DNA of 64,000 bases from an uncultured bacterium (GCA_963746775.1 CAVVCK010000002.1:431656-495655); one strand, 5' to 3'; counted from the first letter of the stretch, positions 2,859-43,058 are shown. Numbers and translations: made by a program. Notes: a model not told the origin generated them from the sequence alone.

Positions 2859-3995
2859 TTATTTTACATTTTCATAAATTTTTTGTGTCTCCTTCGCACA
2901 ATCTATCCAATTAAACTTTTTTATCTGTCTATAACCGTTATTAATCATATTATTTCTTAGTTGCTTATCTTTTAAAACTTTTTCGATATTTAAAACTATA
3001 TCTTCCCTATCTTTAGAATTAAAATATATTGCCGCCCTACCCAATATTTCAGGTAAAGAAGAAGTATTAGACGATATAACCGGTAAACCAAAACTCATTG
3101 CTTCTAGTCCTGGCAAACCAAAGCCTTCTATAAATGAAGGAAAAATATAAAGACTAGCTTTGGTATATAAATAAGCTAAATCTTTCTGGGAAGCAAAACC
3201 AAAAAATACTATTGAATTATCATGTAAAAGTCCTGTGCTATAAGCATCTTGTTTTAATCTTTTATAAAAATAATCTTCTTTCCCAATTAAAACTAGCTGG
3301 TGTGAAAAATTATTTCTTTTTTTAAATTCTTTGTAGGCCTCAATCATTCCTTCTAAGTTTTTATGAGGATAAGCATTGCCTACATACAAAATATAAGGCT
3401 TGGTTATTTTATGCTTTTCTAAAAATCCCGGCTCCGGAATGGATAACTGCCCACTCTCTACTCCGTCACAAGCCTCATAAGTAACTTCTACTTTATCTGA
3501 TCTTATTTTAAAATAACTTATCAAATCTTTTTTGGTAAATTCCGAAACCGTAATAACCTTTTTCGCTCTTCTAACAGCTGAATTAATAGCTAACTTATAG
3601 CCCAAATATTTAAATTTATACAATAATGGCCCTAAGGTAGTTGCCCTTTTAGTTGGAAATCTTAATAAAATTAAATCATGAATAGTAACTACGAAATCCC
3701 CTCGATATAATACTGGCACATTAAAATGAGGAAAATGCATCAAGTCAATCTTGTGCTCTTTTATCAATTTAGGCATTTTTAATTGTTCATCTAACGAATA
3801 CCATTTTAAATCAGCAACTATCTTTTCAAAATTTTCATTTTCAGGAATATATTCATCAAAATTTTCTTGGCGTAAAAAAATAATATACTGATTTGTTCTA
3901 TCAACTTTTTCTAAATTCTTTATTAATTTTTCTGTATAACGTCCCAGGCCTTTACCTTTAGGGCCGTAAAAGCGAGCATCTATTCCAATACGCAT
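2859..3995 (-). CDS. Glycosyltransferase family 4 (GT4)
   Basis: N-terminus MRIGIDARFYGPKGKGLGRYT and C-terminal EGFGLPGLEAMSFGLPVI motif are typical of GT1/GT4 retaining glycosyltransferases. Confidence 0.85.
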   Translation of the reverse strand: MRIGIDARFYGPKGKGLGRYTEKLIKNLEKVDRTNQYIIFLRQENFDEYIPENENFEKIVADLKWYSLDEQLKMPKLIKEHKIDLMHFPHFNVPVLYRGDFVVTIHDLILLRFPTKRATTLGPLLYKFKYLGYKLAINSAVRRAKKVITVSEFTKKDLISYFKIRSDKVEVTYEACDGVESGQLSIPEPGFLEKHKITKPYILYVGNAYPHKNLEGMIEAYKEFKKRNNFSHQLVLIGKEDYFYKRLKQDAYSTGLLHDNSIVFFGFASQKDLAYLYTKASLYIFPSFIEGFGLPGLEAMSFGLPVISSNTSSLPEILGRAAIYFNSKDREDIVLNIEKVLKDKQLRNNMINNGYRQIKKFNWIDCAKETQKIYENVK

Positions 3996-9353: not shown

Positions 9354-9431
9354 ATATTAAATAATTGACCGCAAACTCTTTATTAGTACAGACAAGTTTA
9401 AAACTTGTTTCTTCATTATTAACTTTAAATA

Positions 9432-9882
9432 GGCAGGCTATAAGCCGAATTCTGTCTCATCCGCCATAGATTAACAGCGAAGGCGGATTGCCTTCATTGA
9501 AAACTACGGCGAATACTATGATCATCTATCTAGCCTTACTATTACTAGCAAGGTCATGCTTTTTATAAATTACACCAGATGGGGTTTACCCTATTATAAT
9601 GTTACCATTATAACCTGTGAGCTCTTACCTCACTCTTTTCACCATTGCCTGCCATAGCCTATAAAGGCGACGGCTGGCTGTATATGTCTCTGTGGCACTT
9701 TCCCTCACCCTATCTAGAAGATAGAGTGCAATTGCCGTTAGCAATCACCTTGTTTCAAAGTCCCAAGGATTAATAGAAAATCCTATGAGGTTTTTCTACT
9801 CTCGAATCCATAAGCTCTGAGGTGTTCGGACTTTCCTCCCCTTATTATTATATAAATAATAAGAAGCGATCATAAACCTGCC
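9432..9882 (-). ncRNA. rnpB: RNase P RNA, bacterial type A
   Basis: Minus-strand motifs GGGGAGGAAAGTCCGAAC (P4 5' strand), GGTGAAAAGAGTGAGGTAAGAGCTCAC (J11/12-P12 region) and GACAGAATTCGGCTTATAGCCTGCC (P4 3' strand/P1). The 5' GGCAGG pairs with the 3' CCTGCC. Confidence 0.85.
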
Positions 9883-10010
9883 TACTATAATAATAAAATA
9901 GCAAAGAAATTTATGCTATTATTAAAGTGGATTGGCTTATAACAAGCAATTTAGATAATATGTGAAAATTTTAACTACTCATATTATACTTATTTTAAGT
10001 CTTTTGTCAA

Positions 10011-38432: not shown

Positions 38433-39107
38433 TTATATATATTCCTGTAAATTTCTTAAAATCTCATTTTGTACTTCCTGTTGATCATTCTCACCATTTA
38501 TAGTAATTAATGCACCTTTCTTTCTATACATTTCAAGTACTGGGTCCAAATCTTTATGTCCCCATTCTAATCTTTTTTTAATCATTTCTGGCTGATCATC
38601 TTCTCTCATAATTAGCTCCACTTCATTACAACTTTTGCATTTCTGACTTTTACTGCCATTAGAAATATAAATTTCTTTACAAGCCGGACAAATTCTTCTT
38701 CTTGATAATCTTTTAATAGCCTCGGTATCAGATATTTTTATATGTAAAACTAATAGATTATATTTTTCAATACCTATTTCTTCTAATATTTTATCTAAAT
38801 TTTCTGCCTGAATCAATGTCCTTGGGAAACCATCCAAAACTACATTAGAATCATCTTTTACTTCTAAAATTTTCTCTTTTAATAATTTTGTGGAAATATG
38901 ATCTGGGACTAATTCACCTTTTATATTTATTATTTCATTGATTTTCCTGCCTAATTCAGTATCGCTAGCTGCTTCAGTTCTTAACATATCGCCCATTACT
39001 AAATAGGTATAATCTATTTTATCTCTAAGCATTTTTGCTTGAGTACCCTTTCCTGAACCAGAAAGACCGGAAAGGATGATGAATAAAGGCTTTTTTGTTT
39101 TAGACAT
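38433..39107 (-). CDS. adk: Adenylate kinase (zinc-lid type)
   Basis: P-loop LSGLSGSGKGTQA. Lid CPACKEIY...CKSC. Confidence 0.88.
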   Translation of the reverse strand: MSKTKKPLFIILSGLSGSGKGTQAKMLRDKIDYTYLVMGDMLRTEAASDTELGRKINEIINIKGELVPDHISTKLLKEKILEVKDDSNVVLDGFPRTLIQAENLDKILEEIGIEKYNLLVLHIKISDTEAIKRLSRRRICPACKEIYISNGSKSQKCKSCNEVELIMREDDQPEMIKKRLEWGHKDLDPVLEMYRKKGALITINGENDQQEVQNEILRNLQEYI

Positions 39108-39323
39108 TTTTTCTATATATAAATATAATTATGTATTTAATTACATTTTAAATTTCTAATACCTAATATCCAATTTCTAATAAAATTTCCAATGATTGAA
39201 TGTCTAATTGAACATTAGTAATTTGTCATTTTCTTGGAAATTGTTAATTGGTAATTGAGAATTATAAAATAAAAATTTACACAAACATTCAAAAAATCAA
39301 ATAGTTTCTATTAACACTCAAAT
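39108..39323. repeat. Family-1 intergenic inverted-repeat element
   Basis: AAATTTCTAATACCTAATATCCAATTTCTAATAAAATTTCCAATG ... TTGGAAATTGTTAATTGGTAATTGAGAATT. Confidence 0.55.
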
Positions 39324-40604
39324 TTAATAAAAACTTTCATAATCTCTCATCACTAATTGCGACTCAATTTGCTTTACAGTTTCCAAGACAACACTTACTA
39401 CAATTAATATACCTGTACCACCAATAGTTAATCCCGGAATATTAAATACTCCTTGTACTATAAATGGTAAAACAGCTACAAAACCTAAAAACAAAGCTCC
39501 AGCTAGAGTTATTCTACTTAGTGTTTTTTGTAAATATTCCGAAGTTAATCGTCCCGGTCTGATACCTGGCACAAAACCTCCTTGTTTTTGAATATTTTCA
39601 GAAATATTTTTTGGATCAAAGGTAACTGCAGTATAGAAATATGTAAAGAAAAACACTAAAATAAAATATAATACTCCATAAAATATTTGGTTCTGGAACA
39701 AATCAACAATATTTTGAGAAATAGTTTTAAGTAAGTTATTATCCGAATTTACAAAAAAATTACCTACCATGCCAGGGAAGATCATAATTGATAAGGCAAA
39801 AATAATTGGAATAACACCAGCTTGATTAACTCGAAGCGGCAAATGCGTAGAAGTTCCTCCATACATTTTCATACCTCTTACTCTTCTAGCATAGTTTATG
39901 GGTATATTTCTTTGTCCTTCGGTAATAAAAACAATACCAGCAATAACTATAACGGCGATAGCTGCGAAAATACCCATATTAAATACTTTAGAAGCATCAA
40001 AATCTACCAAAGCCTGTTGGATAGCTTTAGGAATACTAGATACAATACCAGCAAATATTATCAAAGACACTCCATTACCTATTCCTTTCTCGGTAATAAG
40101 CTCTCCTAACCACATTAGAAATATAGTACCACCAGCTAAAGTAATTATGGTTGTAATTAATTGAAAGATAGATAATTCTCCTAAGATATTTTGTCCTGCC
40201 CTTTGCAATAAATTGATCATAGCATAAGCCTGTAAGCAAGCTAGGGGAACGGTCAGGTATCTAGTTATCATATTGATCTTACGCCTACCAACTTCTCCTT
40301 CTTCTTTCTGTAACTTTTCTAACCTAGGAACAACCATAACGAGTAGCTGCATTATAATTGAAGCAGTAATATAAGGACCAACACCCAAGGCTACTACAGA
40401 AAAATTTTTCATGCCTCCTCCAGAAAACATATTCAATAGACCCAATATTTGATTACTTTGAAAAAAATTTTTAAGGTTTTCAATATCTACTCCAGGAACA
40501 GGAATATGTGCTCCTAATCTGAAGACTACTAACAAAGAAAAAACAAAAAATATCTTTTTTCTAAGATCTTTTATACTAAATATTTGTAATATTTTTTTCC
40601 ACAC
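39324..40604 (-). CDS. secY: Preprotein translocase SecY
   Basis: 426 aa, 10 TM. Conserved SecY plug and ring motifs (GIMPYITASIIMQLL-like). Confidence 0.9.
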   Translation of the reverse strand: MWKKILQIFSIKDLRKKIFFVFSLLVVFRLGAHIPVPGVDIENLKNFFQSNQILGLLNMFSGGGMKNFSVVALGVGPYITASIIMQLLVMVVPRLEKLQKEEGEVGRRKINMITRYLTVPLACLQAYAMINLLQRAGQNILGELSIFQLITTIITLAGGTIFLMWLGELITEKGIGNGVSLIIFAGIVSSIPKAIQQALVDFDASKVFNMGIFAAIAVIVIAGIVFITEGQRNIPINYARRVRGMKMYGGTSTHLPLRVNQAGVIPIIFALSIMIFPGMVGNFFVNSDNNLLKTISQNIVDLFQNQIFYGVLYFILVFFFTYFYTAVTFDPKNISENIQKQGGFVPGIRPGRLTSEYLQKTLSRITLAGALFLGFVAVLPFIVQGVFNIPGLTIGGTGILIVVSVVLETVKQIESQLVMRDYESFY

Positions 40605-40663
40605 TATGATTAAAAGTTAAACGTAGGTCATTAAATGTATAAATAATTTTAAACAGATTCGTT

Positions 40664-41377
40664 TTATTCTTTTGGCTTACTCTTATTAACATCACTGCCT
40701 TTTGACACACACCACCACCAAAAGTTAAACCTTTCACTACCATCAGGTTCAGGTATTAATCTTTGCCGAGCTTCATTTATTAAATATATATAATTTTTTC
40801 TCCCATTCTTGGCTATATTTTCTTCCATAGCATGATCATAATCAAGGATACTTAAATATTGTTTGGCATGAATATCCATTTTAGAAGCTTTTGCTCCTGC
40901 TTGCCATCTACCTAGCCATACCTCCATTTCCCTATAGAAATATTCAACTTTATTTCTCTCTTTCATCATCATTATAATGTCTTCCTTGGAATCATTACCC
41001 ATATTCTCAATATACATTTTATATTTTTCGAAACTATCATCTAAATAAACTCTGATATAATCTACAATTTCATCTATTCTAATCTCATCAAAAATATCAT
41101 ACAATTTTTTATAAAGTTCACTCGCTTCTTTTTTTCTAGTATCAAATTCTTCTTTGTTTATTACTTTATTGGGAATACCGTGTAATTTAACAAAATAATC
41201 AAATTCATTGCTTAACTTTTGCCCTAAATATAAACATTCCGGTAACTCTTTATATTCTAAAGAAGCACTTGAAATATTTTGTTTTAAATCTAATATTGTT
41301 TCAAGTATCAATAGCCAGTCTTTTTTTATCTGGCTCAGCTCTTCATCGGATAAAATCTTTTTTCCGACTGTGTACAT
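40664..41377 (-). CDS. Hypothetical protein inserted between rplO and secY
   Basis: 237-aa soluble, Trp-rich C-terminus (FNFWWWCVSKG). No recognised family. Confidence 0.45.
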   Translation of the reverse strand: MYTVGKKILSDEELSQIKKDWLLILETILDLKQNISSASLEYKELPECLYLGQKLSNEFDYFVKLHGIPNKVINKEEFDTRKKEASELYKKLYDIFDEIRIDEIVDYIRVYLDDSFEKYKMYIENMGNDSKEDIIMMMKERNKVEYFYREMEVWLGRWQAGAKASKMDIHAKQYLSILDYDHAMEENIAKNGRKNYIYLINEARQRLIPEPDGSERFNFWWWCVSKGSDVNKSKPKE

Positions 41378-41438
41378 GGATTAGATGTTATATATGAGAT
41401 ATTAAATGTTAGACTTATAAACACCTACATTTAATAAT

Positions 41439-41930
41439 TTAAGATGCTTTTTTGCTTTTTGAAGCTTTTCTTTCTTTTTTCTTTAATTCAATCTTCTTAA
41501 TTTCACCGCCAGCTTTTTTTATTTTATCTTCTGCACTTTTGGAAAAACTATCTACTTCAACTATTAATTTTTTATCTATATTACCTTCTCCTAAAATTTT
41601 TACTTTTATCTTAAGATTATCAATTAAACCAACTTTCAACAGATTCTCTTTACCTACATTATCACCGTCTTTAAACTTTTTTGCAAGACTAGCTATATTA
41701 ATAATTTCAGGTTTTTCGAAAATTGATTTAAAGCCTCTTTTCTTTGGGATTTGTGAAATTAAGCGAGTTCTGCCACCTTCAAAACCAGGCTTTCTCTTTG
41801 AACCTGATCTTGCTTTCTGACCTTTCATGCCTCTAGCAGAATAGGTACCTTTTCCAGAACCTAGTCCACGACCAACTCTTTTCCCCTTTCTTTTTATACC
41901 TTTGCTTGGTTTTAAATCATTTAATTTCAT
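41439..41930 (-). CDS. rplO: 50S ribosomal protein L15
   Basis: MKLNDLKPSKGIKRKGKRVGRGLGSGKGTYSARG. Confidence 0.9.
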   Translation of the reverse strand: MKLNDLKPSKGIKRKGKRVGRGLGSGKGTYSARGMKGQKARSGSKRKPGFEGGRTRLISQIPKKRGFKSIFEKPEIINIASLAKKFKDGDNVGKENLLKVGLIDNLKIKVKILGEGNIDKKLIVEVDSFSKSAEDKIKKAGGEIKKIELKKKERKASKSKKAS

Positions 41931-41956
41931 ATTTTAAGCTAATAATTATTTAAGTA

Positions 41957-42562
41957 TTATTTCTCAGTCTTTTGTAGTTTCTTAACATTCTTATCTATAG
42001 TTTTATTATCAACGCTAGAGGAACCATTCACTGATTTTTCTTTTTTAAGAAAATATGGAGCAATTTCTCTTAAGCCCTTGCCTCTCCCATCAGCAATTTC
42101 TTGAGGACTCCTAATATTACCTAGTATTTTAATAGCGGCTGTAACATTATTGATCTTATTATTAGAACCTAACATTTTTCCTGAAATATTTTTAATTCCT
42201 GCTAACTCCAAAACAGATCTGACAGCACCACCAGCGATAATACCAGTACCCTCGCTAGCAGGCATTAAAATAATTTTTGCACCTTTATATCTACCTTCAA
42301 CTTTATATGGAATCGTACCATTTACAACCGAAATATTAATTATTTTCTTTTTTGCTTGTAGAACTGCTTTCGATATTGCACCTGAAACATCATTACCTTT
42401 AGCAATGCCTATACCAACTCTGCCTTTTCTATCACCAATACAAATACAAGCTCTAAACCTAAATCTCTTTCCACCAGAAACAACTCTAGATACCCTAGCT
42501 AAATCAACTAGCTTTTGATCAAATTCTGGTTTTTTATCTCTTCTTTTTGAAAATTTCCTCAT
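41957..42562 (-). CDS. rpsE: 30S ribosomal protein S5 (with C-terminal extension)
   Basis: LVDLARVSRVVSGGKRFRFRA core. Confidence 0.9.
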   Translation of the reverse strand: MRKFSKRRDKKPEFDQKLVDLARVSRVVSGGKRFRFRACICIGDRKGRVGIGIAKGNDVSGAISKAVLQAKKKIINISVVNGTIPYKVEGRYKGAKIILMPASEGTGIIAGGAVRSVLELAGIKNISGKMLGSNNKINNVTAAIKILGNIRSPQEIADGRGKGLREIAPYFLKKEKSVNGSSSVDNKTIDKNVKKLQKTEK

Positions 42563-42577
42563 AAAATTATTTAATCT

Positions 42578-42955
42578 TTAAAATTTTAACCCACCAGATC
42601 GAGCACCTTCAGCAAAAGCTCTAACTCTTCCTAAATATCTATATCCACCTCTATCAAATACAACTTCAACAATTTTTTTATCCTTAGCTTTCTTGGCAAT
42701 TAATTCTCCTAATTTTTTTGCTTTTTCGGTTTTATTTAACTTCTCGCTTTTTAATTCTTTATCTAAAACTGAAACTAGTGTTTTGCCATCTTCATCATCA
42801 ATGATCTGTGCGTAATTATTCATATTACTTTTGAAAAAAGATACTCTGGGTCTTTTGGCAGTACCAAAAACTTTACTTCTAATTCTAGTATGTCTTTTTA
42901 TTCTCTTTAATTTTTTAATCTTAGCTTGCTTTGTCTTCTTAAATCTTATTTTCAT
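42578..42955 (-). CDS. rplR: 50S ribosomal protein L18
   Basis: [17 protein letters not shown]-like core. C-terminal [23 protein letters not shown]. Confidence 0.9.
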
Positions 42956-43058
42956 TTTTTCTATACTAATTATTACGATGCTAATATACTAATGCATACG
43001 AATCATACGAATGAATTATTAGTATAATTAGTATTCATTCGTATATTTGTATCGCCTA
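42956..43058. repeat. Family-3 intergenic palindromic element (CGATGCTAATATACTAAT ... ATTAGTATTCATTCGTATA)
   Basis: Shares words with 52765-52856 and 55499-55586. Internal inverted repeat ATACGAAT/ATTCGTAT. Confidence 0.55.

Follow-up and report, generated by a model that had tools for sequence, protein, structure and literature searches.

A rare, undescribed helical protein family encoded between rplO and secY in a small subclade of Patescibacteria

The stretch of DNA analysed here, hereafter the window, comprises 64,000 nt from an uncultured bacterium, in which the genes of the spc operon follow the order L5, S14, S8, L6, L18, S5, L15, X, SecY, Adk, and Map; X is our name for the 237-aa protein encoded between rplO and secY, and all positions are counted in the window. 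The X coding sequence (40664..41377, minus strand; 237 aa plus stop, ATG start) is preceded by rplO (41439..41930, minus strand), which encodes ribosomal protein L15 of 163 aa and is identical to the gene in L005 that carries Pfam Ribosomal_L27A, and is followed by secY (39324..40604, minus strand; 426 aa, GTG start), for which the gene in L005 carries Pfam SecY. The adjacency of rplO and secY is among the most conserved in bacteria. All three genes share one orientation on the minus strand, and the soluble, Trp-rich reading frame that a preliminary description had placed between rplO and secY in that orientation is indeed found there, the peptide quoted in it being X residues 216–229. X is hydrophilic (GRAVY −0.69), contains six Trp residues, and has a pI of 5.4; a search for transmembrane segments found none, the best 19-residue Kyte-Doolittle window reaching 0.9. 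The GC and GC3 of the gene resemble those of its neighbours.

Neither the rplO-X spacer of 61 nt (41378..41438, minus strand) nor the X-secY spacer of 59 nt (40605..40663, minus strand) holds a terminator-like or strong promoter-like site. A Shine-Dalgarno sequence is not recognisable in the leader of any of the twelve genes examined between 37450 and 44850 (L5, S14, S8, L6, L18, S5, L15, X, secY, adk, map, and ruvX); the leaders of all twelve are A/T-rich, and that of X is like the rest. The X-secY spacer is not conserved among orthologs, and the RNA from the WWW codons near the end of X to the secY start forms no stable structure (z = +1.25, with 186 of 200 shuffles folding at least as well). 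Moreover, an Rfam search of 39000..43000 for a structured RNA in or around X returned no match at E up to 1. Elsewhere in the window, a bacterial class A RNase P RNA (9425-9885, minus strand; 166 bits) is 461 nt long against the 367 positions of its model and hence bears sizeable insertions, and a tRNA gene was not found at any point of the 64 kb.

X is a genuine protein-coding gene under purifying selection, and its family is very rare. About 20 homologs are known, at 24–79% identity: a word-indexed search of 5.8 billion protein clusters returned the identical protein and eight homologs at 69–79% identity, and an exhaustive HMMER scan of 1.84 billion representative proteins gave 13 matches, 11 of them real (24–46% identity, 210–230 aa, including one 90-aa fragment) and the other two a chimeric copy, P0009, and repetitive junk. 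Profile searches yielded only a few further homologs, and a scan of JGI metagenomes yielded four loci. The family is undescribed, its members being unnamed or listed as "hypothetical protein" in their sources. Pairwise dN/dS between the closer orthologs is 0.09–0.14, compared with 0.18 for L15, 0.08–0.13 for Adk, and 0.03 for SecY in the same genome pairs, all of these ratios being rough because dS is near saturation. The AlphaFold2 model of X had a mean pLDDT of 52 when built on eight close homologs and of 78.7 (pTM 0.78) after three diverged members were added, and such a gain with alignment depth is the behaviour expected of a real fold with co-varying positions.

That X might be a spurious reading frame or an assembly artefact, an outcome that the preliminary description had tied to a lack of conservation together with atypical codon usage, is vanishingly improbable: orthologs are present in independent assemblies (ENA, JGI, NCBI, Logan), dN/dS lies far below 1, the composition of the gene, including its codon composition, is typical of its surroundings, and the structure model improves as the alignment deepens. 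The sole odd copy, the truncated P0009 in L096, lies on a chimeric metagenome contig (L096 1-3539; JGI contig Ga0210020_1016476), of which the first ~540 nt (21–24% GC) carry the 5' part of an X ortholog and the remainder (about 40% GC) carries unrelated genes on the opposite strand. The jump in GC falls where the P0009 protein diverges from the family; the contig is chimeric, and the database protein P0009 is therefore an artefactual fusion.

X has no detectable relatives by sequence or by fold, as its earlier description as a protein of no recognisable family had anticipated. Pfam and NCBIfam gave no match above noise for X (Pfam was also run on 11 family members), and the known ribosome-associated factor that had been envisaged as an alternative identity did not emerge from profile search. 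Foldseek comparisons against PDB and BFVD found no whole-protein match, the best E being about 0.4–0.5 and the TM-score at most 0.39. Partial alignments to tandem three-helix bundles (spectrin/plakin repeats, syntaxin Habc, PhoU) have identities of 2–17%, and they are generic since they span unrelated families as well as de novo designs. X shows none of the features that would place it with PhoU or spectrin-like proteins, namely a shared whole-protein fold, a family profile, or an internal duplication: PhoU gave no Pfam match for X or for the family members, and a comparison for a duplicated three-helix unit within X gave an hhalign probability of 0.17%. A phage or defence origin was rejected, for PHROG and PADLOC gave only scattered single-member matches (E of 0.002 or weaker), none of them common to the members, and the composition of X is that of the host genome.

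Searches of PDB sequences, with X as a single sequence or as a profile, likewise gave no significant match, barring one obtained with the most diverse family profile (A5), which matched chain C of 8vsj at E = 1.5e-4. This chain (TRACeR-II) was engineered from the N-domain of the superantigen MAM, the Mycoplasma arthritidis mitogen, and its designed residues contributed to the score, reading L-A-Q-N-L-N-N where the native protein has F-V-Q-N-L-N-N. Native MAM chains were not matched by the X profile at E up to 10, and an hhalign comparison with the native segment gave a probability of 0.55%; homology to the MAM superantigen was therefore rejected, the engineered chain having matched and the native one not. 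The case illustrates how a designed protein in the PDB can yield a misleading profile match.

In the AlphaFold2 model, X consists of six long helices (residues 11–38, 42–66, 75–96, 101–124, 131–158, and 172–205, the last with two breaks) followed by a low-confidence tail. Conservation was read from an alignment of 20 members with 23–77% identity to the window copy, in which M1, Q53, N57, Y89, Y119, R141, E150, W154, D181, G213, R216, W221, and W222 are invariant. The helix 2 motif (residues 48–61, CLYLGQKLSNEFDY; 41195..41236, minus strand) follows C-x-x-L-[AG]-Q-x-[LF]-x-N and contains the invariant Q53 and N57, and the helix 5 motif (residues 141–154, RNKVEYFYREMEVW; 40916..40957, minus strand) follows R-[DN]-x-[IVF]-[KE]...[DE]-E-[LMF]-x-x-W and contains the invariant R141, E150, and W154. 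The polar invariants are spread over five helices, which in the model suggests either a specific binding site or a buried polar network. The pI of the members ranges from 4.7 to 9.3, so that net charge is not conserved; no simple electrostatic model consequently fits the protein, and models based on an acidic surface were dropped.

The most conserved segment of X is its tail motif (residues 213–222, GSERFNFWWW; 40712..40741, minus strand), which reads G-x-x-R-[FY]-x-[FY]-[WP]-W-W across the 20 aligned members and lies 2–19 residues before the stop. G213, R216, W221, and W222 do not vary at all, and F217, F219, and W220 hardly vary. The mean pLDDT is 55–62 over residues 211–230 and below 50 for residues 228–237; short docking motifs typically combine such high conservation with low structural confidence. 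Within the motif region, FNFWWWC is the best membrane-interface segment of X (−7.6 kcal/mol, Wimley-White), so that the end of X, as expected of a peripheral membrane anchor, is predicted to bind the interface strongly. In the window's subclade the motif is followed by a Lys/Ser-rich extension (residues 223–237, CVSKGSDVNKSKPKE; 40667..40711, minus strand), which has 15–19 residues with 4–7 Lys/Arg in that subclade and 13–19 residues with 3–7 Lys/Arg once P0013, which carries a 13-residue form, is included; outside these members, X ends 2–7 residues after the WW of the motif. The strict Gly, Arg, and spacing exceed what plain partitioning into lipid would need, which argues for a specific partner, perhaps besides lipid. 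In the window and in all fetched loci the motif occurs in X orthologs only, and 306 of 310 pattern matches in metagenomes belong to proteins unrelated to X. The tail is accordingly unsupported as a shared targeting signal.

The species-representative genomes nearest to the window are metagenome-assembled genomes of the ultra-small Patescibacteria (CPR), and even their SecY proteins are only 72–75% identical to that of the window. X is confined to one small subclade of this group. A pattern scan of species-representative genomes, with patterns that fitted the window's subclade only, gave no match for X, and a scan based on SecY revealed diverged copies in L006 and L010. The presence and gene order of X, which the preliminary description had proposed to check in relatives, were read in close relatives, in relatives at 28–39% identity (L006, L010, L086, L098), and on short contigs that carry the most diverged members (L089, L091, L092, L093). 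X is fixed in position: secY lies directly downstream in every non-chimeric homolog with a readable context, rplO lies directly upstream wherever the contig reaches, down to 26% identity, and the sole exception to the X-secY order is the chimeric L096 (P0009).

Within this subclade, X can also be lost. In the SecY tree, L010, which has X, is sister to L007 and L008, which lack it, and L006 together with L086, which have X, is sister to L009 and L020, which lack it, both groupings having 100% bootstrap; support for monophyly of the clade as a whole is poor (44%). The four genomes lacking X have rplO and secY 75–173 nt apart. The simplest history is a single gain followed by at least two clean losses in which the adjacency of rplO and secY was restored, and X is hence dispensable within its own clade. 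A comparison of SecY between genomes with and without X gave five discriminating columns only, one of them uniform on the side that has X, and no L15 column was found to track the presence or absence of the gene.

The spacing around X varies considerably between lineages. For example, the start codon of X in L093 begins on the final base of the gene before it (distance −1) and X overlaps secY by 11 nt, the X-secY gap is 9 nt in L089 and 6 nt in L092, and rplO and X are 8–9 nt apart in L010 and L089. In L010 and L089, a Shine-Dalgarno-like GGAAG for secY lies within the final codons of X, which would account for the conserved Gly codon right after WWW[HY] in their subclade. Counted from the junctions, the separation between the last Trp codon and the secY start runs from ~13 nt in L093 to ~107 nt in the window, and there is thus no fixed geometry. 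Translation of X is likely coupled to that of secY in the compact lineages. Co-transcription of X with rplO and secY, which had been considered probable on account of their shared orientation, gains indirect support from the short gaps of 59–61 nt free of terminator-like and strong promoter-like sites, from the kept gene order, and from the abutting or overlapping genes of some lineages.

Elsewhere in Patescibacteria, the rplO-secY junction is usually intact, yet not inviolable. The two genes adjoin in 65 of 76 informative secY loci; the junction is interrupted in 4, and rplO is absent within at least 2.9 kb upstream of secY in the other 7. In two Moranbacteria, L016 and L019, a 593-aa GTPase and a 106-aa Cys-containing ORF lie between rplO and secY (L016 1695-3868; the rplO-secY gap in L019 is 2.65 kb), the GTPase being assigned from TypA/BipA-like G-domain motifs judged by eye; this insertion is independent of X and unrelated to it. 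The apparent rplO-secY gap of 483 nt in L042 results from an L15 of 274 aa (3090-3914) with a C-terminal extension of ~110 residues. One slot further upstream, between rpsE and rplO, a gene of the DJ-1/PfpI family is present in L001 (2928-3443), L002 (2933-3445), and L011 (2646-3188), an assignment made from precomputed Pfam hits for L001 and L002 and from the N-terminal sequence only for L011; L001 and L002 are close relatives (SecY 92–93% identical), and L011 is more distant. In most bacteria, this slot holds rpmD (L30). In the window, S5 and L15 are 26 nt apart (41931-41956), with neither a DJ-1/PfpI gene nor rpmD between them. We also observed five loci in which secY lies apart from the ribosomal protein cluster: the genes upstream of it in L018, L022, and L025 encode a putative secreted protein, a glycosyltransferase-like protein, and a membrane protein of 168 aa, and those in L037 and L059 include an ORF of 149 aa whose N-terminus is EF-Ts-like, all of these being putative calls. 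Functionally unrelated genes also insert into this cluster in Gammaproteobacteria and Bacilli (PMC8046335). A junction and neighbourhood that take up unrelated genes make the position of X, by itself, weak evidence of function.

From these observations, a tentative model can be put forward in which X would be co-produced with SecY as an accessory protein whose tail docks it near the membrane, a reading that we regard as possible rather than probable. Captured once between rplO and secY, X would have been inherited vertically and transcribed with both genes, its translation being coupled to that of secY in the compact lineages. The body would be a cytoplasmic protein of six long helices bearing the invariant polar residues Q53, N57, Y89, Y119, R141, E150, and D181, and the Arg/aromatic tail would serve as a docking peptide, binding the lipid interface or a specific conserved partner and so keeping this body on the cytoplasmic side of the membrane. 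There X would be a non-essential helper of the SecY translocon, or of ribosomes bound to the membrane, acting on or close to them; since its translation immediately precedes that of SecY on a shared message, these are the likeliest sites of action. Both the membrane docking and the association with SecY are inferred with modest confidence, the link being gene position and a hydrophobicity scale. The Lys-rich extension in the window's subclade and the location of the strongest interface segment in the tail count for docking; the lack of convincing X-linked changes in SecY and L15, the two losses of X, the unconserved charge, and the tolerance of the region to insertions count against the model.

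About equally likely is that X is a passenger with a function unrelated to translation or secretion, residing at a site that gives strong constitutive expression and tolerates insertions; its tail might then bind some other partner or X's own helical body. Such a history would resemble that of the other genes at this junction and in its neighbourhood, namely the DJ-1/PfpI genes and the GTPase-like gene with its 106-aa companion, and it accords with the loci in which secY has left the cluster altogether, with the unrelated insertions reported in Gammaproteobacteria and Bacilli (PMC8046335), with the traceless loss of X on two occasions, and with the lack of convincing co-variation between X and either SecY or L15. 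It fits less readily with a position kept down to ~25% identity and with the close coupling to secY seen in several lineages, where the ribosome-binding site of secY can even fall inside X; these features fit selected co-expression, although operon inertia alone could also give them. Proximity to rplO, which X follows directly within a ribosomal protein operon and abuts or overlaps in some lineages, would instead suit a factor of the ribosome rather than of the translocon, for example an assembly helper, an escort for L15 or another basic ribosomal protein, or a hibernation or tunnel-exit factor. Many members are acidic, like the window copy, against a pI of 9.5–10.6 for the neighbouring ribosomal proteins, but this acidity is not conserved, some members having a pI of 8.5–9.3. 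X also resembles none of the ribosomal proteins or ribosome factors represented in Pfam, NCBIfam, or the PDB with its many ribosome structures, L15 shows no X-linked feature, and X is dispensable, all of which makes a ribosome-associated role unlikely.

A regulatory role in translation would bring X close to the Sec/YidC monitoring substrates (SecM, MifM, VemP, and RAPP-type), of which SecM, MifM, and VemP are arrest peptides that control secA, yidC2, and secDF2, respectively (PMC10987492). By analogy, the C-terminus of X would stall its own ribosome and thereby control the translation of secY. Like these monitors, X is a small unassigned ORF that immediately precedes a gene of the export machinery, with which it is probably co-transcribed, and it ends in a strongly conserved peptide that includes Arg and aromatic residues, which also matter in the SecM arrest motif (PMC10987492). 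Published criteria for a monitor include an ORF of fewer than 300 aa that has no assigned function and lies right before a sec or yidC gene (PMC10987492); X, with 237 aa ending 59 nt before secY and a tail motif conserved in 20 members, has three of the four published traits (PMC10987492). The trait it lacks, an N-terminal secretion signal or transmembrane segment, is a required one: the N-terminus of X (MYTVGKKILSDEELSQIKKD) is hydrophilic, as are those of the other members. Unlike the case described for SecM, no RNA structure sequesters the downstream ribosome-binding site, the RNA between WWW and the secY start being unstructured and the spacer unconserved; the distance from motif to secY is variable, and stalling at WWW in L093 would leave the secY start itself hidden under the ribosome. 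Furthermore, the body of ~200 residues is large, folded, conserved, and held by purifying selection, unlike the loosely conserved bodies of known monitors. By the published criteria, X is not a Sec/YidC monitoring substrate, and an arrest peptide at this locus is highly improbable. Slightly less improbable, though still very unlikely, is that the tail is a new kind of element that directly engages the translation or translocation machinery; it might be a pause-inducing peptide that lacks an export signal and adjusts SecY synthesis by way of translational coupling, or it might insert into a conserved site on SecY or at the ribosomal tunnel exit. If this were true, X would be a CPR-specific regulator of the translocon without counterpart in studied bacteria.

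For the accessory model, a possible comparison is Syd of E. coli, a small, soluble, non-essential cytoplasmic protein for which a role on the cytoplasmic side of SecY has been proposed. Syd has an alpha/beta fold and its gene is not known to lie beside secY, whereas X is all-helical with a Trp-rich tail, and Pfam scans of X and 11 family members gave no match to the Syd family; the resemblance may be a functional analogy only. The R-F-x-F-W-W-W of the X tail is close to the R-F-P-W-W-W core of tritrpticin (VRRFPWWWPFLRR). Trp side chains prefer the membrane interface, and Trp/Arg-rich peptides such as tritrpticin sit there (PMC11858513). Tritrpticin is a secreted cationic host-defence peptide of 13 residues, whereas the motif of X forms the C-terminus of an intracellular protein of 210–241 residues; the likeness is one of physical chemistry only and implies no ancestry. 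With regard to its genomic setting, X resembles the tusDCB, bfd-bfr, nrdHEF, and ilv-leu insertions of Gammaproteobacteria and Bacilli (PMC8046335) in being a lineage-specific gene caught in a highly conserved cluster, where such genes are sometimes subsequently lost or disconnect the cluster. Most of those insertions lie between operons and have known functions, whereas X interrupts the spc operon itself, between rplO and secY, represents an undescribed family, and appears to be translationally coupled to secY in some lineages. The capture of a lineage-specific gene in the ribosomal/secY cluster is hence a known kind of event, and what is new is the X family itself.

CPR bacteria have a reduced and unusual translation and export machinery, which to our knowledge has hardly been studied by experiment. 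X is probably a lineage-specific, non-essential add-on. Its persistence at a conserved junction through deep divergence, together with the likely coupling to secY in compact lineages, makes it a reasonable candidate partner of the ribosome or translocon in CPR, and the invariant Arg/Trp terminal motif offers a simple experimental handle. The importance of the family is limited by its great rarity, by its dispensability in its own clade, and by a link to function that is drawn from sequence. A minor feature of the locus is a heptamer repeat directly before the X start codon: in L001 (3971-4000), three copies of ATCTAAC are followed by ATCTAAT, and degenerate copies occur in L002 (3971-4000) and, as ATCTAA[CT]-like heptamers, in the rplO-X spacer of the window (...GTCTAACAT...ACATCTAATCC ATG). 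The repeat could be a translation or regulatory signal, or the product of simple repeat slippage.
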